Sequence record: PX136376.1
Reading direction: 5' to 3' (one strand)
Length of the DNA: 44,388 nt
Origin: a phage
Position 1 is the stretch's first letter, and each line of letters begins with the position of its first letter. Under the pieces are notes generated by a model. The model was not told the DNA's origin and made no database searches. It saw nothing but the letters and a program-made list of their open reading frames with translations. Positions 3,297 through 40,495 of this stretch are shown one piece after another. Position numbers and translations under genes: made by a program.

Positions 3297-3325
3297 AAAA
3301 GGCCCCTTACAGGGCCTTAGTTTTA
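3297..3325. terminator. bidirectional rho-independent terminator (family copy 1)
   Basis: inverted repeat AAGGCCC/GGGCCTT with A-tract upstream and T-rich tract downstream, between convergent genes; stronger reading on minus strand. Confidence 0.55.
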
Positions 3326-3844
3326 TTTAACTCGCGCAGGCATTAACACCATAAATGCTGTATTTGAAAATGATATTTTACATCCTCTTGTTTGGTCCTG
3401 GAAATCGAAACGGGCAAATTCATTTTTGTATGCCTTAGAAATCTTGTACGCGTCCGCCAAATAGCGCAGAGTGAACCCTATGCTATCTACAGCACCTGGA
3501 GTAATGCGCGCCACGCGTCGCCAGTCAGGAAATTTTCCGTCTACAACATCAACCGGAAGGGTACATATAAGCGCACGACTATCGTCATAGAAAGAAACAT
3601 TGCCGTTGTCGTGGTCTACCTCAGCGTAGTTAAATTTAGAAGGCTCCCTCCCTTTGATGTCTATGAGAACTCCCGTTTCAACGTTTGTCTTCACATTGTC
3701 GCAGAACAATCTATGGCCATCCGTAGAAACTATCAATCCTTCAGGGTCTATGTAAAAAGCGTTAAAATAGTAGCGCACATCATTTTTAGCCCTGCAGATT
3801 TTCGCCCCTACATACGCGGGGAAAGTAATTACTGTAGTAACCAT
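3323..3844 (-). CDS. beta sliding clamp (DnaN)-like protein lacking clamp domain I
   Basis: 173 aa; motifs DVRYYFNA, LIVSTDGHRLF, VDGKFPDWRRV and C-terminal FMVLMPARVK resemble E. coli DnaN domain II/III motifs (recalled from memory); AGGAG RBS 8 nt before ATG; own promoter element upstream. Confidence 0.7.
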   Translation of the reverse strand: MVTTVITFPAYVGAKICRAKNDVRYYFNAFYIDPEGLIVSTDGHRLFCDNVKTNVETGVLIDIKGREPSKFNYAEVDHDNGNVSFYDDSRALICTLPVDVVDGKFPDWRRVARITPGAVDSIGFTLRYLADAYKISKAYKNEFARFDFQDQTRGCKISFSNTAFMVLMPARVK

Positions 3845-3863: not shown

Positions 3864-3900
3864 TTAACTGAATAGTACCCTATTATATTGGTGTCTGCAA
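3864..3900 (-). promoter_or_regulatory. conserved promoter/operator element, class 1 copy 1 (overlapping divergent sigma70-like promoters)
   Basis: minus-strand reading TTGCAG-N17-TACTAT toward the DnaN-like gene; plus-strand reading TTAACT-N17-TATATT toward head morphogenesis gene; central palindrome TAATAG-ggta-CTATTC. Confidence 0.5.
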
Positions 3901-4988: not shown

Positions 4989-5449
4989 TGATGGGCTTTT
5001 TCAAAGTAACTGATGTACCGTCGCGTCGCGTAGTCCAGTACGCCCGTGTGTCTGGCTCTGGCGAGAACGTGGTATTTATTGAAAATGAAAGTGTACTCGG
5101 TACACCAGTAGACGATATGCCGTTTGCTGATAAAACCGGTATTGCACTACCGGCGGCGGGTATGCTTTATGAAATTCCGTATCTGGCTGATGCTGGTGAT
5201 GTGTATTTCTCGGTGCAACCGAAAGACACGGAACTGGCAGACGGCAGCGCAACTATCACTGTCGAAGTTAAGGCGGGTAAAGCGCCGTATGCGCTGACCT
5301 GGTACAAAGACGGCAAGGAAGTGGTCAACGCCCCTGAAGAAGCTTTGTCTCTGACGGTTAACGCGGTGGGTGAATACTTCGTTAAAGTCACCGATGCCGA
5401 TGGGGTAGAGGCCGTCAGTAAAGCTGCGAAGGTTACTAAGCCGGAATGA
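4988..5449 (+). CDS. Ig-like domain protein (possible capsid accessory/decoration protein)
   Basis: 153 aa; beta-rich segment ...ALTWYKDGKEV...EYFVKVTDADG resembling an Ig-like fold; start overlaps preceding stop. Confidence 0.5.
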   Translation: MMGFFKVTDVPSRRVVQYARVSGSGENVVFIENESVLGTPVDDMPFADKTGIALPAAGMLYEIPYLADAGDVYFSVQPKDTELADGSATITVEVKAGKAPYALTWYKDGKEVVNAPEEALSLTVNAVGEYFVKVTDADGVEAVSKAAKVTKPE

Positions 5450-5519
5450 TAAAAAGCCGGAATGATAAAAAGCCGGAATGATAAAAAGCCGGAATGATAA
5501 AAAGCCGGAATGATAAAAA
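5440..5519. repeat. perfect tandem repeat, 5 copies of 16-bp unit GCCGGAATGATAAAAA
   Basis: read directly; first unit contains the stop codon of the 4988..5449 CDS; array abuts a terminator hairpin. Confidence 0.95.
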
Positions 5520-5545
5520 GCCCCGCTATGGGGCTTTATTTTTAT
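5515..5545 (+). terminator. rho-independent terminator
   Basis: stem AAAGCCCC/GGGGCTTT with loop GCTAT followed by TTTATTTTT. Confidence 0.65.
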
Positions 5546-5609: not shown

Positions 5610-5954
5610 TCATTTGCATTTCTCGTCGTATGTTTGTTGTAACTGCGACAGACGATTACCGGCTGTCATCTCGTCCATAGAAGGCCCGGCGCCCGTGTCC
5701 ATAAAGAACAGCGGAACAATCAGGAATGCGCCTGTAACACCGAGTACAACGTTAGTACCTATTTGCTTATTAACACGGTGCGTAGCGTTGGCTTGAGCTT
5801 GTTTTGTCGTGGCGATTCTCGATAGTAACTGATTACATGTTGCCGTTGTATCCCCTGCCTGATAAACCTGTAAAGCCGGGTCTGGCAACGACCTTACGCA
5901 ACCACTCAAACAAACGGCTACAACACCTGCTACTGCTAATTTAATATATTTCAT
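5610..5954 (-). CDS. lipoprotein (candidate superinfection-exclusion or envelope-modifying protein)
   Basis: 114 aa; signal peptide with lipobox LSGC (MKYIKLAVAGVVAVCLSGC); later hydrophobic stretch VVLGVTGAFLIVPLFF; antisense to structural operon. Confidence 0.65.
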   Translation of the reverse strand: MKYIKLAVAGVVAVCLSGCVRSLPDPALQVYQAGDTTATCNQLLSRIATTKQAQANATHRVNKQIGTNVVLGVTGAFLIVPLFFMDTGAGPSMDEMTAGNRLSQLQQTYDEKCK

Positions 5955-13336: not shown

Positions 13337-14463
13337 CCCAGCATCTCCGGTGAAATAGTTAAACGTGCGACCTCGCCATATTCGGCGCTATAAGTAATTA
13401 CATTTGCACTGCGGCCTGACATCCACCCGCCGCGGGAGGCATAGGCGTCTTTAGCCGCTAAGGTGCGGTGTTGCTCAACAATCATGTTACGGCTTTCTAC
13501 AATCTTCTGGTGGTGCAGGTGGCCTACGTGGGCGTAGCTATAGACACTCTCACCGAACGCTTTGCGGAATTTGGCAATCATAACCGGTTCGATAGCATCG
13601 AATCGCGCCTTATGCCCGTGGTGAAAGAACAACGTCGTTTTTCCGTGTTGCACCATCTTGTAAACATCCGGCGACGTATCGACAATCACTCGGCTGTCGT
13701 TCGAATATAAAACTGTGAACATTTCAGCCAGCCATACAGAGCCTACAGGGTCATGGTTCCCCTGTACGATAAGCAAGCGAACATTTTTATGTTTAACCAG
13801 TGCCATATCTACAACACGGCGTACCATACGAATCATGTAGCGGACGAGTTTCTGGTAGCGAGTGTCTGCGTCCAACACGTGACGCGACTCAGGTGTAACG
13901 GCATCCAGACTATCGAAGTGCGCGAAATCACCCAGCAGGTTAATAACTCCTGTTCCTGCATCCGGTGCTTTCTGAAACGCCGCGTCGAACCAACGAGAGA
14001 ACAGGTCTTCCGCAATCTTTATATCCCAGTCGTCGCCGCTCTCGTCGGCCCAGGCAAGCATACCGAGATGGAAATCAGATACCGTGTAAAGATTGAGTAG
14101 CTTGTCGTCGCGTTTGGCTCGAGTCGCTTTAGCCGGCGCAACTGGCGTAATCTCTGACTTCATGCCTTCAATCACGGCTTTCATCAACTCGACCTGACGT
14201 TCAGCGTCGGTGTCTGTCTTAACCCATTGCAACTTAGTATTGCCGAACTCGTCTACCAGAGACGACGTCCCTTTAATCTTGTAGCCGTCTGGGACAAGGT
14301 GGCTAACGTCACGCCCGTGGCCTACACCTTTCTTAGCCAGCTTCGCTTTACGGATACGAATAACTCGGTCTGAGATGCCGTATTTACGGGCGATGTCTAC
14401 ATTCTTCATCCCGGCGTTCAATTCTTCCTGTAACTGTTCGTCGGTTATTTTCTTCTGGGCCAT
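13333..14463 (-). CDS. HTH-domain protein fused to calcineurin-like metallophosphoesterase (Mre11/SbcD-like or phosphatase-like)
   Basis: N-terminal HTH-like segment (NVDIARKYGISDRVIRIRKAKL); metallophosphoesterase motifs DFH, GDFAHFD, GNHD, HHGH, GHLHH; RBS gaggaag. Confidence 0.7.
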   Translation of the reverse strand: MAQKKITDEQLQEELNAGMKNVDIARKYGISDRVIRIRKAKLAKKGVGHGRDVSHLVPDGYKIKGTSSLVDEFGNTKLQWVKTDTDAERQVELMKAVIEGMKSEITPVAPAKATRAKRDDKLLNLYTVSDFHLGMLAWADESGDDWDIKIAEDLFSRWFDAAFQKAPDAGTGVINLLGDFAHFDSLDAVTPESRHVLDADTRYQKLVRYMIRMVRRVVDMALVKHKNVRLLIVQGNHDPVGSVWLAEMFTVLYSNDSRVIVDTSPDVYKMVQHGKTTLFFHHGHKARFDAIEPVMIAKFRKAFGESVYSYAHVGHLHHQKIVESRNMIVEQHRTLAAKDAYASRGGWMSGRSANVITYSAEYGEVARLTISPEMLG

Positions 14464-14528: not shown

Positions 14529-14855
14529 CTATTTACTTTCTGCGCCTATTGCCCATCCAGTCATTACCATTTGCAGACGGGTGGCTGTCAGAAGGCTGTA
14601 AAACGCGTCCCCGGTTTTCTCTACCGAACGTATTACCGTGTATGTTACGGCTTGCGGAGGTAGGCCCGATTTACCGACATCTACGGCGGCCTCGCATTCA
14701 CGGACTGTGGAGTCCTTAAATGCCTTTACAATAGTAGGGTCGGCTTTATCAAGCACACCAGAAGTCATAAGAACAGATTCACTAAATACCTGTTCGCACG
14801 GGGCTCCAAAAGTAGCAAAAGACATAAACCCCAGAGCTAATACTAATTTACGCAT
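14529..14855 (-). CDS. secreted/periplasmic protein (108 aa)
   Basis: N-terminal signal peptide MRKLVLALGFMSFATFGA; RBS gagga; first gene downstream of conserved promoter element. Confidence 0.55.
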   Translation of the reverse strand: MRKLVLALGFMSFATFGAPCEQVFSESVLMTSGVLDKADPTIVKAFKDSTVRECEAAVDVGKSGLPPQAVTYTVIRSVEKTGDAFYSLLTATRLQMVMTGWAIGAESK

Positions 14856-35172: not shown

Positions 35173-35190
35173 AGCCCCTTTCTTTTTACC
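35162..35190 (+). terminator. rho-independent terminator
   Basis: AGGGGCTT-AAAGCCCCT hairpin followed by TTCTTTTT. Confidence 0.6.
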
Positions 35191-37448
35191 TATTCCAAAT
35201 CCTCCTCTGTCACCACCAGCATCTCATTTGGTTCGTATAGTGTCTTCGGCCTTAATCTATCCCCTATTCTTTCGGGTATACGATATGTTCTCGGTACTAC
35301 TTCGCCGTTAGCATCGCAACCAAGCATTAGTTCTCCATCTTTCAACATTTTATCAAGATGGGTGTTAGTCACAGAGAAGTCACCGGAACGAGCCACTATC
35401 TGCTGCTGAGTAAAACCGCGACCTGTGTCATCTGACTGTTGCAGGTCTTCCAGTGCCGAAAGTATTGACTCCTTCCTTACTTCATCCCTGCCGCGTTTAA
35501 CTTCTTCCTTTACTTTTTGCTTACCTTCTTTCGTCAACCCTTCTTCCCGCTCTTTCTCCTCGTCAGTTTTGAACGGCTCGAAACCCCACGGCATCAACAC
35601 AAGCGCCTTGTGTGGTTCAGGCAGGTCCAGGTTTACGATTGTGCCGTATTCCTCTGTGCTACCCAGGAACTCAACCGCTCGGTATTCTTTAGGCGGCGGC
35701 GCTTCACGGAACTGTACCGACTCCAGCACCATGCCAACCGTCTTCTGCTGAGGCCCGTGCTTGAATTTCGAGTGATATACGTTTATCTGACGGTCGGTTG
35801 CACGTTCGATTGTCAGTTCCACGTCAACACCCGCATACAGCGCCCCACTGCCGCGTGCTTTCTTTCCACCCTTCGGCGTATGGTGGACAACGCCTACTGC
35901 GGCTTTAGTTGCATCGCGTACTTCTTTCAGAATGGCGATAACTTTACCCATGCCGATTGCTGTTGATGAACTGTTCTCGTCGAACTTATCAATCGTCAGG
36001 GCCAGCGTCTGGTTAAGGGTGTCGAAGGCAACCATGCCAATAGGTTCATCCCCTGCGGTTTCGCGCATCCTGCGGATTAGAGCTGGAATTTTTTTATCAC
36101 CATGCGTAGCGAGTATTTCGCCCATATCGATGACATGTACATAATCTTTACCTTCCTCGCCATATTTAGCCGCGAGTGCATCAATACGTGTTCGTGTAGC
36201 TGCACCACCCTCGCCGTCAATATAGAAATGGTGGCAACGTTGGGTGTCAGCCCCCGCAAACCGGTACCCGGCGGCGCTCAGGTACATCATCCCCAGCGTA
36301 TAGAATGATTTGTACGTGCCGGATTCCCCGACAATATCCCAGATACAATCCGACGGCATGTACCCCTCAACGACGAAATCAGCCTTTACCGGTTCTGGTA
36401 ACTCGTCCTCCTCTGAGTCCTCGTCGTCTTCCAGGTCGTCGAGGCTGCATGAGACAGATTCACGCGCCCCCCAACCGATGGCCTCTGCGACTTCACTGAA
36501 CGGCAGCCCGGTCGCATCGCACGCGTACTTCCACACCTCTTTCGGTGACAGGCCTTCTGTCGCCGTAATGTCTGTGTCGTGAATCATGGTTACGTTTGGC
36601 GCTTCATACCCCTCGCGCGGGAAGCACAGCAGGAAGTCGTCCGGGCGCGGTGTCGGGTCGCTGTAGTTTTCGGCATGTTCCGGTGTGGCTGGCATCTTAA
36701 GGCCGCGCGGCGTCATGACGCCGCCGTACTCAAACGCCAGTGCTTCAAACGCGTCTGTAAACGCGGTGCGCAGTTCTTCCGGTATCTGGTAATCCGATGC
36801 GCTGCTAACGTCAACGGCTGGGATGCCTTCCAGTAACTCGTTCGGGTCGATCAGGTCGTTGCGGCGCGACCAGATAACGGTAGCGCCGACCGGCGGCAGG
36901 TACATCGGCTGCGACAGAGTGAACCCGCTGCGGTCCGCACCCATGCCTTTGAAGAAGTGCTCCAGCAACCCATGACGAACACGGATGATGTCACCACCCT
37001 CCACCGGACGGGCCAGTGGCATTACGACGCGAAAGCGCGGTGACTCATCAGTATGTGATGCCGTGGTATAGAGGCACATGGCCCAGCGGCTGCGCTTAAC
37101 CAGGCGCACCGCTTCCTGATACTCTTCCGGTGTTGTGCTGTCGAAATCCAGATAGGCCAGCGACGATTTGCTTACAGACGCATCGCAGCGGTAGAAAAAA
37201 CCTTTACGCGCTTGCTTAAAGTCTCCAGTTTCCGGGTCTTTTACGGTGCTGTGCGTTGAGTCGCACGCGGCGGTGATATAACCGGGCGCGGTCTTAGGGT
37301 TAATCCCGTCGCGAACGGCATCGAGCGGCTGGATTAACTCTTTCAGGTCGTCCAGTGTTGCCGTGTGTGCGGTTCTGACATTTATATCCTTTTTTCCCGC
37401 CCGCGCGTTGCGGCGTGACCACGAGTAGGATAAAATTACATCGGACAT
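35190..37448 (-). CDS. putative replicative primase-helicase
   Basis: 752 aa; Walker A GESGTYKS in C-terminal RecA-fold region; large N-terminal domain of primase-like size; function inferred. Confidence 0.6.
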   Translation of the reverse strand: MSDVILSYSWSRRNARAGKKDINVRTAHTATLDDLKELIQPLDAVRDGINPKTAPGYITAACDSTHSTVKDPETGDFKQARKGFFYRCDASVSKSSLAYLDFDSTTPEEYQEAVRLVKRSRWAMCLYTTASHTDESPRFRVVMPLARPVEGGDIIRVRHGLLEHFFKGMGADRSGFTLSQPMYLPPVGATVIWSRRNDLIDPNELLEGIPAVDVSSASDYQIPEELRTAFTDAFEALAFEYGGVMTPRGLKMPATPEHAENYSDPTPRPDDFLLCFPREGYEAPNVTMIHDTDITATEGLSPKEVWKYACDATGLPFSEVAEAIGWGARESVSCSLDDLEDDEDSEEDELPEPVKADFVVEGYMPSDCIWDIVGESGTYKSFYTLGMMYLSAAGYRFAGADTQRCHHFYIDGEGGAATRTRIDALAAKYGEEGKDYVHVIDMGEILATHGDKKIPALIRRMRETAGDEPIGMVAFDTLNQTLALTIDKFDENSSSTAIGMGKVIAILKEVRDATKAAVGVVHHTPKGGKKARGSGALYAGVDVELTIERATDRQINVYHSKFKHGPQQKTVGMVLESVQFREAPPPKEYRAVEFLGSTEEYGTIVNLDLPEPHKALVLMPWGFEPFKTDEEKEREEGLTKEGKQKVKEEVKRGRDEVRKESILSALEDLQQSDDTGRGFTQQQIVARSGDFSVTNTHLDKMLKDGELMLGCDANGEVVPRTYRIPERIGDRLRPKTLYEPNEMLVVTEEDLE

Positions 37449-37505
37449 GTTGTATTTCCTTCAGCAAGTAATTTGGCCTCGGCGCTCTAACGCTGGGGCT
37501 TTCTT

Positions 37506-37739
37506 TTATTCCAGGTCTTCTAAAGTGGCTGTCACCCCACGAACTTCGGCAACAGCACTATATCTCCCGCCAACATTTTTCACGACACCAGATTTAACCA
37601 GCACCTTCAACGACCCTTCAATGATGGCGGAACTATAGTACCTAAAATAACTGCGGCGCAAGTCCATAACGCTGCACGACCCTTTTTTACGTGTTACCGA
37701 AACAACCGCCGTAAATACGCGTGACTGGAACTCGGTCAT
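37506..37739 (-). CDS. hypothetical protein (77 aa)
   Basis: start overlaps stop of upstream HTH gene (ATGA). Confidence 0.45.
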   Translation of the reverse strand: MTEFQSRVFTAVVSVTRKKGSCSVMDLRRSYFRYYSSAIIEGSLKVLVKSGVVKNVGGRYSAVAEVRGVTATLEDLE

Positions 37740-37906
37740 TTTACATTCTCCTTAATCCACGCTTCTACTTTCTCCGGGTCGAACGTACCTGGCTGGCGAC
37801 GGCCCATAATGCGAACACAACAATCCGGGAACTTACCGCTCTTTAACCAGTTATTCAGCGTGCGGCGGGTAACCCCGATACGCTCAGCTACTTCATTCTG
37901 TGTCAT
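37736..37906 (-). CDS. small HTH DNA-binding protein (AlpA/Xis-like fold, 56 aa)
   Basis: VAERIGVTRRTLNNWLKSGKFP helix-turn-helix; RBS gaggg 9 nt upstream; below ORF-track cutoff. Confidence 0.5.
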   Translation of the reverse strand: MTQNEVAERIGVTRRTLNNWLKSGKFPDCCVRIMGRRQPGTFDPEKVEAWIKENVK

Positions 37907-37938
37907 TCTAAAGCCCTCATTATCAGTTAACGAAACCG

Positions 37939-37967
37939 AGTATACATTGCGAATAATGGGAAATCAA
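37939..37967 (-). promoter_or_regulatory. putative sigma70-like promoter for leftward operon
   Basis: minus-strand TTGATT-N17-TATACT ~30 nt upstream of small HTH gene. Confidence 0.4.
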
Positions 37968-38337
37968 ACATAATTGCACCTATTGACATTATGAAAATCT
38001 TCGTTTAAGATGCTTCTATATCTTAGTTACTTTGATTCCTGTTCACCTTGTAAGAATGTTTAACCCGTGCGTCAAGCAAAGGGTTAAACACAGGCTTACT
38101 GAACATGAGAATTATCGTAACTTTCCTTCCTAAGTATCTCCGGTTGCCCTGGGCAAGCTCTATTCTCATCGGCGGCATATCTCTTAAGTATCTGATTTTC
38201 TTAATGTGCCGTAGATTCGCAACCGTAAAAATGTAACGATTATTGGGCAGGCTTAGGGCCTGCCCTTTAGTTACCAAGTAATAAGAATAAAGGCACAACC
38301 CTACCTGAAGAATCACAACGGCAACGTAACTAATCTC

Positions 38338-38368
38338 TTGCACACCCCAATATAATAGGATACTATTC
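38338..38368 (+). promoter_or_regulatory. conserved promoter/operator element, class 1 copy 4 (rightward)
   Basis: TTGCAC-N17-TACTAT with palindrome TAATAG-gata-CTATTC; 30 nt upstream of RBS gaggag and gene at 38401. Confidence 0.5.
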
Positions 38369-38400
38369 ACTTATTGAAACAAGACAGAGGAGTGATGGTT

Positions 38401-38586
38401 ATGTTTAAGAAGGGTCAGTTGGTGAGAACGAGATATTCTGGTTACTACGGAGTTATTAAGCGCGTTTCAGATAAAGTTAACGGGTTGTATTACGTTACTA
38501 ATACTGATCGGGCTCTCGGTCTATGGTACAGAGAACGCGAGCTAATACTCATCGGCAACAATTTTAAATTAAAAGGGGCGAAGTGA
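38401..38586 (+). CDS. hypothetical early protein (61 aa)
   Basis: RBS agaggag 8 nt before ATG. Confidence 0.5.
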   Translation: MFKKGQLVRTRYSGYYGVIKRVSDKVNGLYYVTNTDRALGLWYRERELILIGNNFKLKGAK

Positions 38587-38801
38587 TGGAAGAATTAATT
38601 TGTATTGAATCCCGCCAGGATGTGCAGGATTGGTTTGTGAAAGGTAACAAATATTCGTCGGGAGTATATTACGACGGCCGTCGATACGTTTTAGATGAAG
38701 ACGGTGATGAATGGGATTTAGAGGACACTGTGGGTGAGACTTTAACCGTTAGTTTTCTTCAATGTTGTTTCCGCATCATTCACAACGGCATCGAATCATG
38801 A
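38586..38801 (+). CDS. hypothetical early protein (71 aa, acidic)
   Basis: TGATG stop-start overlap; RBS aagggg. Confidence 0.45.
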   Translation: MEELICIESRQDVQDWFVKGNKYSSGVYYDGRRYVLDEDGDEWDLEDTVGETLTVSFLQCCFRIIHNGIES

Positions 38802-38901
38802 TGCTCGTGCCGACGACTCTGAGGGAGGTTGCCGTGAATAATTACCCGTTTATTTTAATTGTCAGCGCTGTTTATGAGGCGCACGCGTTGTGGGGGTTGG
38901 T

Positions 38902-39096
38902 ATGAGTCCGTATAACCGGTTTCGTCTGGAGCGTCTACGTCACGGATTAAGTAACGCTAAATTAGCTCTCGATATATGGGAAAGTACGCCGTATTTTTCC
39001 TCGAAGGCATGGTTTGTCGCTCGCGCTACAGCGTCCGTTCAGTACCGGGAATACAAGTTAAACAGTTTCCTTAAACACCATGGGGCTAAGTTATGA
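38902..39096 (+). CDS. hypothetical protein (64 aa)
   Basis: ATG at 38902 within ORF opening at 38890. Confidence 0.4.
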   Translation: MSPYNRFRLERLRHGLSNAKLALDIWESTPYFSSKAWFVARATASVQYREYKLNSFLKHHGAKL

Positions 39097-39254
39097 GAGA
39101 AGCATTCGAACGGTGGGCCGTCGTCGATGGTCTGCCGGTTAATAAGGGTTCGAAGAAAGAGTACCTGAACGTTAAGACGCGTCTTGCGTGGCGGGCGTGG
39201 AAAGCTGGTGCGCAATATCGGGCCGGTGTAACAGGCGGTGTAACAGGTCAATAG
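39093..39254 (+). CDS. hypothetical protein (53 aa)
   Basis: ATGA overlap with upstream gene; below ORF-track cutoff. Confidence 0.35.
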   Translation: MREAFERWAVVDGLPVNKGSKKEYLNVKTRLAWRAWKAGAQYRAGVTGGVTGQ

Positions 39255-39276
39255 GTTACTATTTGTCTTTGTGTCT

Positions 39277-39386
39277 TACGCTGCTACACAGCAGCGTACA
39301 ACTTTAACTTAGTGTCGTCAAAAGGCGACACTTCCATAAGACACTGTTGGGGCAGGGATAAAGTGTCCCCAGTTAGCGACACTAAG
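39277..39386. repeat. structured intergenic region: perfect 8-bp hairpin plus cluster of 7-mer CGACACT/AGTGTCG copies
   Basis: TACGCTGC-tacaca-GCAGCGTA (39277-39298); 10-bp inverted repeat CTTAGTGTCG...CGACACTAAG (39308-39317 / 39377-39386) enclosing further GACACT/AGTGTC copies. Confidence 0.8.
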
Positions 39387-39402
39387 CACCAATAAAATTT
39401 AC

Positions 39403-39431
39403 TTGCACACTAGGATAGAATAGACTACTAT
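39403..39431 (+). promoter_or_regulatory. class 1-like promoter (diverged copy 5)
   Basis: TTGCAC-N17-TACTAT; operator-like AATAG-acta-CTATTC; 30 nt upstream of gene at 39463. Confidence 0.45.
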
Positions 39432-39462
39432 TCATTTACACGAACGAGAGGAGATACGGAAG

Positions 39463-39612
39463 ATGGTTACTTTGATGGTTATGGAATTCGAAAACAGCGC
39501 AGCAACTTACCGTGAGATGACTATGGCGCAGGCGTATCACCTGGCCTCAAACGGCAACTTCTACAAGGCGCAAATCATCAACGAGTTTGGGGTAATTGAC
39601 TATGAATTTTAG
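39463..39612 (+). CDS. hypothetical protein (49 aa)
   Basis: RBS gagaggag; below ORF-track cutoff. Confidence 0.4.
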   Translation: MVTLMVMEFENSAATYREMTMAQAYHLASNGNFYKAQIINEFGVIDYEF

Positions 39613-39874
39613 CAGCTACACCGTTACCGTTGATTTTGAGGGGCTGGAGTTGCCCCTCCCCAACAACTACAGATATGTCACGCGCGACCGTAACGGGTTT
39701 ATCCAGGGGTGGCGGAACAAACCGACAGATACTGAGTTCGGGATGTCGGGCGGCGAAGAGTTGCCTATCACTTTCGGGCATCAGAGTAGCAGCGAAGAGC
39801 TTAAAACTGTGATTCGTAAGTATCGCCGCCGCGGTAACACTGGGCTTATAGCAATAACAGGTGCTGTTGAATAA
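39602..39874 (+). CDS. hypothetical protein (90 aa)
   Basis: ATG at 39602; overlaps upstream ORF by 11 nt. Confidence 0.45.
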   Translation: MNFSSYTVTVDFEGLELPLPNNYRYVTRDRNGFIQGWRNKPTDTEFGMSGGEELPITFGHQSSSEELKTVIRKYRRRGNTGLIAITGAVE

Positions 39875-39903
39875 GCGAGAGGAGAGACAAAGGTGAAAGA
39901 GCT

Positions 39904-40107
39904 ATGACCAGCATCTTATTTATCTGGGTATTGTCCGCAGGCCAGATGCAACTCGCAGCATCGGAAACGTTTTACTCGATGGAGGCGTGCCAGTCAGCGG
40001 CACGCGCTGCAGAGAACGCGCACTTTCTGTTTCAGGGCGACAAGCCCAACGATTCAGAGGTACGCGCTATCTGCTCACCTAAGCGACTTGGTAAACAGGA
40101 GAAGTGA
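39904..40107 (+). CDS. small secreted/membrane-anchored protein (67 aa)
   Basis: N-terminal hydrophobic segment ILFIWVLSAGQMQLAA. Confidence 0.45.
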   Translation: MTSILFIWVLSAGQMQLAASETFYSMEACQSAARAAENAHFLFQGDKPNDSEVRAICSPKRLGKQEK

Positions 40108-40109
40108 TT

Positions 40110-40301
40110 ATGGTACGGTTATATGAAGCACGAGGGGCTGAATTAGGGGGCGACGCATTCTACGAAGATTGGGTTGAGGTTGTTCGGTATGAAGATTACG
40201 CGAAACTTGAAGCTGAGTTACAGAAATACAAAGACCAGTACCCTGATTACGTCGAGTGCGCGAACTGCGGGTCGGTTACACATGTGGAAGGGGTGGAGTA
40301 A
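40110..40301 (+). CDS. hypothetical protein, paralog A (63 aa)
   Basis: RBS aggag 8 nt before ATG; shares YEDYAKLEAELQKY-type motif with next gene. Confidence 0.45.
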   Translation: MVRLYEARGAELGGDAFYEDWVEVVRYEDYAKLEAELQKYKDQYPDYVECANCGSVTHVEGVE

Positions 40302-40495
40302 TGGTGCAGAGATATGAGGTAAAAGCGTGGGGCCTGCCAGAGCCTGAGATGGCTGAGTACGCATACGGCGATTATGTAGAATATGACGCTTATCTGAAAC
40401 TTGAAGCAAAGTTACGTGAATTCGCTAAGCAGGTGCTAGATAGCCCGTGTGACTGGAAGACAAATGAATTAGCGCGCGAGATTCTTGGAATATGA
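40301..40495 (+). CDS. hypothetical protein, paralog B (64 aa)
   Basis: TAATG overlap; YDAYLKLEAKLREF motif paralogous to previous gene. Confidence 0.45.
   Translation: MVQRYEVKAWGLPEPEMAEYAYGDYVEYDAYLKLEAKLREFAKQVLDSPCDWKTNELAREILGI

Follow-up and report, generated by a model that had tools for sequence, protein, structure and literature searches.

A repeat cluster at an apparent terminator–promoter junction separating two operons of small genes in a Kagunavirus phage

Between two co-oriented operons of small genes in a Kagunavirus phage lies a dense cluster of short inverted and direct repeats that appears, from comparison with related phages, to be a terminator–promoter junction at the operon boundary. 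The repeated 7-mers are, on this evidence, simply the arms of stem-loops. The first of these, hairpin 1, is followed by a T-tract in most relatives and by a palindrome (palindrome 1) in the lineage studied here, with a second palindrome (palindrome 2) further downstream in this phage. The reading that we favour, at somewhat less than even confidence, is that the stem-loops act as RNA where the operon boundary is leaky, with a part in termination, processing or stability.

The window (the whole stretch of DNA analysed, 44,388 nucleotides) is placed in Kagunavirus (Guernseyvirinae) by similarity. The 1.4 kb around the cluster matches 298 phage records, all of them Guernseyvirinae-type siphoviruses of E. 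coli, Salmonella and relatives, with top identities of 90–93% to Kagunavirus phages, and the helicase-primase (35190..37448, minus strand) is 85–98% identical to its Kagunavirus counterparts, as against ~63% for Jerseyvirus. By synteny with K1G, the terminase genes are located at the window start. The cluster occupies a 208-nt non-coding gap with + strand operons on both sides, and no ORF of at least 40 aa is present on either strand of 39254–39463. The downstream operon extends to the holin and endolysin genes. The features of the region are as follows.

38338–38367, + strand: class-1 promoter, driving the upstream operon of tiny ORFs
39093..39254, + strand: ORF of 53 aa (phrog_15836, function unknown), last of the upstream tiny-ORF operon
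39250..39263, + strand: promoter-less copy of the AATAG-N4-CTATT motif (AATAGGTTACTATT), overlapping the stop codon of the upstream ORF, just before hairpin 1
39277–39298, + strand: hairpin 1, TACGCTGCT-ACAC-AGCAGCGTA, perfect 9-bp stem, −13.2 kcal/mol as RNA
39299..39310, + strand: 12-nt spacer, CAACTTTAACTT
39311..39332, + strand: palindrome 1 (stem-loop 2), AGTGTCG-TCAAAAGG-CGACACT, 22 nt
39340..39345, + strand: lone half-site GACACT
39362..39383, + strand: palindrome 2, AGTGTC-CCCAGTTAG-CGACACT, 22 nt
39308..39386, + strand: long imperfect hairpin of 79 nt, palindrome 1 paired with palindrome 2, 26-nt arms, 81% complementary
39390..39431, + strand: conserved class-1 phage promoter, putative
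39390–39402, + strand: UP-like A/T-rich stretch of this promoter
39403–39408, + strand: −35 element TTGCAC, followed by a 17-nt spacer
39426–39431, + strand: −10 element TACTAT, overlapping AATAGACTACTATT (39419–39432)
39450–39453, + strand: GGAG ribosome-binding site of the first ORF of the downstream operon
39463..39612, + strand: ORF of 49 aa (DUF7170 / phrog_4653), opening the downstream operon

Starting 23 nt past the stop codon of the 53-aa ORF is hairpin 1, the perfect hairpin of the initial annotation, whose stem had been given as 8 bp and measures 9 bp. Behind it, the 6-mer core GACACT/AGTGTC is repeated five times in alternating orientation (39311, 39327, 39340, 39362 and 39378). At least five alternating copies had been claimed for the longer word CGACACT/AGTGTCG, a count that holds for the core; the exact 7-mer is present three times (39311 on the minus strand, 39326 and 39377 on the plus strand). 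A sixth copy, of the 5-mer GTGTC, is at 39271. Genome-wide, both words are ordinary in number (20 hexamers observed and 17 expected; 5 and 5.3 for the 7-mer), and five of the 20 hexamers are packed into 73 bp. When the window was shuffled 200 times with dinucleotides preserved, the largest 6-mer cluster per 75 bp contained three copies (178 shuffles) or four (22) and never five, and the sole other five-copy 6-mer cluster of the real window is a plain tandem repeat; the dense intergenic clustering is thus where it had been reported and does not arise in shuffled sequence.

The two palindromes are the only exact AGTGTC-N10-GACACT sites in 44 kb and are 51 bp apart start to start, about five helical turns. 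The successive repeats are spaced by 16, 13, 22 and 16 bp and show no helical phasing. Palindrome 2 shares with palindrome 1 its arms (13 of 14 positions) and its N10 spacing; the centres match at three of eight positions, where two are expected by chance. As RNA, palindrome 1 forms a 9-bp stem including a U.G pair, with an AAAA loop (−12.8 kcal/mol), and palindrome 2 on its own a weak local hairpin (−6.6 kcal/mol). The bounding 10-bp inverted repeat (CTTAGTGTCG, 39308–39317; CGACACTAAG, 39377–39386) is exact, as first described, and constitutes the outer part of the 26-nt, 81% complementary repeat through which the palindromes pair.

Two further repeats were observed in the window. At the 3′ end of the 53-aa ORF, a 12-nt unit, CGGTGTAACAGG, is duplicated exactly in tandem (39224–39247) and encodes GVTGGVTG directly ahead of the stop codon. 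In the head-gene region is a perfect tandem repeat, AAGCCGGAATGATAAA × 5.3 (5438–5522), with a terminator-like hairpin, GCCCCGCTATGGGGC followed by TTTATT, directly 3′ of it.

Homologous loci were collected from GenBank and IMG/VR by BLAST, by scanning for hairpin 1 and by scanning for a flanking motif. The stem of hairpin 1 is identical in all 58 loci (IMG/VR and GenBank; Kagunavirus and Jerseyvirus), with no variant even among those retrieved through a flanking motif instead of the hairpin, and its loop is variously ACAC, GAGT, GTGT, ACTC or GTGC. Two alleles with identical flanks are found from this hairpin onwards. Allele A consists of hairpin 1 and a T-tract (TCATTTTTCTCATTTTTG in Kagunavirus, CCATTTTTGTTAATATTTTT in Jerseyvirus), annotated as a terminator in Snoke, Shashou and Schulenburg; allele B consists of hairpin 1, 12 nt (here the spacer listed above) and AGTGTCGTCAAAARGCGACACT, with palindrome 1 occupying the T-tract position. 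GenBank contains 78 allele-B records (51 of E. coli-type and 27 of Salmonella-type phages) and ~351 of allele A, and each of the two phage types carries both; the 58 loci divide into 17 B and 41 A. Per whole genome, the palindrome occurs exactly once in allele B and not at all in five complete genomes of allele A. As to conservation in related phages, hairpin 1 is thus found in every relative retrieved, but palindrome 1 is missing from ~351 of ~430 GenBank relatives (~82%). In a more distant phage, the Cornellvirus FSL SP-031, the genes are ordered differently and nothing homologous to the element is present, so that it could not be used as an outgroup.

Where present, palindrome 1 is near-invariant, in 78 GenBank records and 17 IMG/VR-derived loci. 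One of its 22 positions is variable across two genera whose helicase-primases share only ~63% identity, and its centre, TCAAAARG, is conserved like the arms, while the loop of hairpin 1 is free to vary. A centre shorter by 1 nt in two records is possibly a homopolymer sequencing error. The distance from hairpin 1 is fixed at 12 nt in all allele-B phages, through a spacer of constant length with 4–5 variable positions; the distance to the promoter is not fixed, ranging from ~50 to >500 nt from palindrome 1, and from 103 to 289 nt from hairpin 1 in the allele-B loci. A scan of IMG/VR for AGTGTCG-N8-CGACACT returned 60 loci, of which 12 have hairpin 1 and only these have the TCAAAARG centre; the remainder have unrelated centres and lack hairpin 1. 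Taken at the level of sequence, the comparison shows that T-tract and palindrome replace one another as alleles at a fixed position, that palindrome 1 is under strong sequence constraint and that the palindrome is dispensable among the relatives.

Following the cluster by 20 nt is the promoter at 39403–39431, with the GGAG site and the ATG at 39463 beyond it. The initial annotation had placed the cluster directly upstream of a promoter element, which is borne out: TTGCAC-17-TACTAT begins within 20 nt, is conserved among relatives and is kept in nearly all Kagunavirus loci examined. With a match at only 7 of 12 positions, it escaped a simple consensus scan. The window has five near-identical promoters of this kind, TTGCACACCCCAATATAATAGGGTACTATTCA, at 3871(−), 6079(−), 14883(−), 38354(+) and 39419(+), each shortly 5′ of a gene start. 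The GACACT copies themselves were considered as −35 hexamers and rejected, no −10 element being found at suitable spacing on inspection of the sequence.

The AATAG-N4-CTATT motif that overlaps this −10 element occurs ~12 times in the window (24 strand matches, 2.6 expected), with 14-nt copies starting at 3871, 6079, 14883, 27491, 31976, 34869, 34913, 38354, 39250 and 39419. It is embedded in two promoter classes in different registers, across the −10 element in class 1 (TTGCAC-17-TACTAT) and within the spacer in class 2 (TTGACA-N4-AATAGnnnnCTATTATAGT), upstream of the replication genes. The motif looks like an operator common to both classes, for a putative global phage regulator; in the paper on fBC-Eco01 it is given, from PHIRE output, as a ‘phage RNAP promoter’. 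Three minus-strand ORFs embedded in the plus-strand structural module (3323–3844, 5610–5954 and 14529–14855), each with its own copy of the class-1 promoter, look like moron-type insertions.

Hairpin 1 would then be the conserved terminator stem-loop that ends the upstream early operon of tiny ORFs, and together with the T-tract of most relatives it would make a canonical intrinsic terminator. In the present lineage, palindrome 1 takes the place of the T-tract and, only here and in the metagenomic contig L044, a further, degenerate copy (palindrome 2) is present. None of the three stem-loops of the window has a U-tract on its 3′ side. The U-tail score, −3.37 for allele A, is −1.79 for hairpin 1 here, −2.4 for palindrome 1 and −1.5 for palindrome 2; a terminator scan of the window called none at the cluster, and for the allele-B phage fBC-Eco01 ARNold likewise predicts none at this site. 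Owing to the poor U-tail scores and the lack of an ARNold call in that phage, termination is expected to be leaky: without a U-tract, intrinsic termination would be weak and RNA polymerase would largely read into the next operon, which, besides read-through, has its own conserved promoter. The element would act on the transcript, its hairpins or the 79-nt hairpin being possible pause, weak-termination, processing or 3′/5′-end-protecting structures of the flanking mRNAs, although the effect of stem-loops devoid of a U-tract on termination is conjecture. A bidirectional or minus-strand terminator was discarded, inspection of the minus strand revealing no U-tracts.

Several properties of the cluster agree with a role in RNA. 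Palindrome 1 is locked in position to hairpin 1 and not to the promoter, and it replaces a U-tract. The cluster folds far better than its shuffles (z-score of −5.6), and when the segment is folded in isolation, its minimum-free-energy structure is the 79-nt hairpin (−30.8 kcal/mol here, −26.4 kcal/mol in L044), with an ensemble probability of ~0.98 in both sequences. Only two arm substitutions are found anywhere, each a C>T opposite G (in palindrome 1 of BCH953P1 and palindrome 2 of L044), and both keep a G.U pair only in the RNA of the + strand; the invariant U.G pair that lengthens the stem of palindrome 1 likewise exists on the + strand only. On the other side, none of 23 predicted pairs shows compensatory covariation, the sequences being too similar, and the RNA structure is thus a prediction. 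Comparison with Rfam over 37400–40400, at E values up to 10, gave nothing relevant, and the literature searched contains no mapped transcript ends, promoters, terminators, pac site or origin for any of the Guernseyvirinae. The comparative data favour the explanation that had first been offered as secondary, a structured RNA where the preceding operon ends.

A nut-type site (boxA and boxB) was also considered for the RNA and rejected: the boxA-like spacer varies at 4–5 positions, the loop is AAAA or CAAAAA and not GNRA-like, and there is no Rfam match. The spacer at 39299..39310 has the stretch CUUUAAC in common with rrn boxA.

A purely structural hairpin accounts poorly for one feature, the conservation of the palindrome 1 loop to the same degree as the arms. 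Moreover, that palindrome 2 keeps the arms and spacing of palindrome 1 and not its centre points to sequence-specific recognition of the arms, over pairing alone. The palindromes might therefore be recognised, as DNA or as RNA hairpin, by a dimeric protein with sequence specificity that the phage or the host encodes, a reading that we consider unlikely yet deserving of attention. Two sites 51 bp apart could bind such a protein cooperatively, and whether the boundary terminates or is read through, or whether the downstream promoter fires, would then be conditional. The uniqueness of the two exact sites in the genome, the shared arms (13/14) and the conservation of palindrome 1 through its central 8 nt in two genera (1/22 positions variable, compared with 4–5 in the 12-nt spacer) would all suit a binding site, and a conserved gene for an HTH_17 / phrog_66 DNA-binding protein is ~1.4 kb away (37736..37906, minus strand). 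However, the site is missing in ~82% of relatives, and with one copy per allele-B genome and none in the five of allele A there is no regulon. No ORF is co-inherited with the palindrome, either within ±1.5 kb (42 loci) or genome-wide (7 B and 5 A genomes), although the binder might be a host protein or one that all these phages encode. The site centres are at about −66 and −117 from the inferred start, at a promoter distance that relatives do not conserve, and the two records with a 1-nt shorter centre, if not in error, speak against such a site. From one half-site centre to the other there are 16 bp, or ~1.5 helical turns, an unusual separation for a simple HTH dimer. The multi-site protein-binding region proposed initially is possible but unsupported.

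In a more novel reading, palindrome 1 might be a module that some phage or host factor recognises by its sequence, as an RNA hairpin or as an operator in the DNA; it would replace the U-tract and turn a constitutive terminator into a conditional, factor-dependent one, maintained as a long-lived polymorphism in two genera and made stronger or cooperative by the doubling seen here. We regard this as rather improbable.

The junction downstream of the alleles is a mosaic. In relatives, either allele is followed by a conserved leader, TTTCACCAAACGCAACAATCGAAGCGACTATTGCAGGAGATGCAACAATG, then by a cassette ORF, for which at least five different small ORFs are found, or by none, and then by the conserved promoter. 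The upstream sequence types are shuffled relative to the alleles, and allele and presence of a cassette ORF are not associated (odds ratio 0.88, p = 1), a result on which we rejected the idea that allele B is tied to a promoter-less downstream cassette ORF needing read-through. In the window the leader is swapped for an unrelated 54-nt segment carrying the lone half-site and palindrome 2, here termed variant C. The segment has exactly the length of the leader, and hairpin 1 is therefore as far from the promoter (105 nt) as in the cassette-less allele-B phages. Elsewhere, exact-pattern scans of IMG/VR and JGI metagenomes found variant C in a single metagenomic contig (L044, identical with L107), ~18% diverged, in which the lone half-site is not kept and reads GACTCT. 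The palindrome-2 segment had no BLAST match in 50,697 phage records, nor had the whole cluster in 5,426 E. coli genomes, and the element is therefore neither a host repeat nor a known mobile element. Derivation of the 54-nt filling from the leader, from its reverse complement or from elsewhere in the genome was considered and dropped, no similarity being detected.

The leader that is absent here is ~47 nt long in relatives (for example, L004 1586–1633) and forms a TTGCA/TGCAA hairpin whose loop presents the GGAG ribosome-binding site. Phages that have lost the ORF behind it (ATG changed to ATA) still keep the leader, and in RNAalifold predictions CAATAG at the upstream stop codon pairs with CTATTG of the leader.

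Such a junction invites the view that the extra palindromes have no function of their own and are by-products of hairpin-mediated template switching or of illegitimate recombination, at a hot spot where cassettes are exchanged; they would be tolerated there because two operons of the same class have no critical need of a terminator between them. This we judge to be a minor likelihood. The variety of cassettes between leader and promoter, the reshuffling of upstream sequence types against the alleles and the independence of cassette ORF and allele are all in its favour, as is the confinement of variant C, with a filling that has no detectable homolog in the 50,697 phage records or the genome, to two known sequences. 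In SXAU_B4 (L005/L114), at the equivalent of 39304–39335, the arms of palindrome 1 are perfect over 12 bp (AACTTAGTGTCG / CGACACTAAGTT), an extension that arose through an altered 3′ flank and is, by its form, the typical signature of quasipalindrome ‘perfecting’ through template switching. Template-switch-type events may thus explain palindrome 2, but they fit poorly with palindrome 1, which is essentially invariant across the 78 GenBank records and 17 IMG/VR-derived loci of two genera while its immediate flanks vary, and with the persistence of both alleles in both genera. The invariance indicates that purifying selection acts, on palindrome 1 at least.

It is highly improbable that the array serves the DNA as an essential cis-acting site, be it an origin of replication with iteron-like initiator sites or a pac site for a headful terminase, because it is missing from ~82% of relatives, which have a T-tract instead, and an essential cis site could not be. 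Both had been the leading proposals of the initial annotation, and neither is supported. Dense short repeats of alternating orientation in a non-coding gap do recall such sites, and repeat arrays of this kind occur in the λ ori and in the P1 and SPP1 pac sites. The cluster, however, is not AT-rich (48% GC, compared with 51% for the genome) and contains no DnaA or IHF consensus, no gene is inherited along with it, its repeats are not helically phased, and the cumulative GC-skew minimum (roughly 38 kb) is ~1.3 kb away, with a long non-coding region of divergent promoters at ~37.5–38.4 kb. On the circular map, ~5 kb separate the site from the terminase genes, as positioned by synteny with K1G. 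PhageTerm analyses published for relatives describe headful packaging, the ends being random and permuted, and map no site to this place.

Two other places came to notice in this connection. Adjoining the divergent early promoters and the skew minimum is a stretch (37983–38275) that opens with a strong σ70-like promoter, TTGACA-17-TAAGAT (37983–38011), and ~255 nt on has a terminator, GGGCAGGCTTAGGGCCTGCCC followed by TTT (38245–38268), with no convincing ORF between them. It folds with a z-score of −6.2, its promoter and terminator recur in a Jerseyvirus phage (L003), and it is a candidate non-coding or primer RNA. In the Salmonella phage FSL SP-031 (L134), at least six GGGGGAGA / TCTCCCCC repeats directly follow the helicase-primase gene (13758–13910); this array would be a much better origin candidate than anything in the region of the cluster.

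The chief value of the stem-loop reading is corrective: an array with the look of an origin or pac site is apparently a terminator–promoter junction, and is therefore not to be annotated as ori or pac. Two alleles of one terminator hairpin in Kagunavirus and Jerseyvirus offer a natural experiment on the tuning of read-through between operons. The junction is also a hot spot of small-ORF cassette swaps, and thus an analogue of PeSL (promoter-early stem-loop) elements in a siphovirus subfamily used in phage-therapy collections.

Among known systems, iteron origins such as λ ori and the pac sites of P1 and SPP1 share with the cluster a group of short repeats in a non-coding stretch, but the repeats here are dispensable, not AT-rich, unphased and close neither to the terminase genes nor to the skew minimum. 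The pair of inverted-repeat sites resembles the operators of dimeric repressors in its identical half-sites, its equal internal spacing, the roughly five helical turns between the sites and the promoter that follows; unlike such operators, the sites are outside the promoter core, at a position that is not conserved, have no cognate regulator that could be found and are absent in most relatives. Variant C, with its predicted 79-nt imperfect hairpin of lower and upper stems and an internal loop between units of the same direction, resembles the RNase III hairpins of the T7 early genes. An imperfect duplex of ~20 bp or more with an internal loop is predicted in silico in the window and L044, the only two known sequences with the long hairpin, whereas ordinary allele B offers 9–12 bp, which is too short.

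The PeSL elements of T4-type phages are terminator/promoter cassettes (PMC2839356, PMC4122927), and they have in common with the junction a stem-loop and a conserved early-type promoter among tiny ORFs, in flanks that bracket insertions, deletions and replacements of ORFs. They differ in that hairpin 1 and the palindrome are single-copy here, with only the promoter half repeated (five times), and in that the present phage is a siphovirus, of a different phage family, with no sequence similarity to them. With intrinsic terminators the element shares a GC-rich 9-bp stem and a tetraloop at the 3′ end of a co-oriented operon, and in most relatives a U-tract as well; here the U-tract is replaced by a sequence-conserved palindrome, for which reason efficient intrinsic termination is not expected. 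Closest in kind are intrinsic terminators and PeSL cassettes, and the junction is an undescribed variant of an otherwise ordinary type of element.
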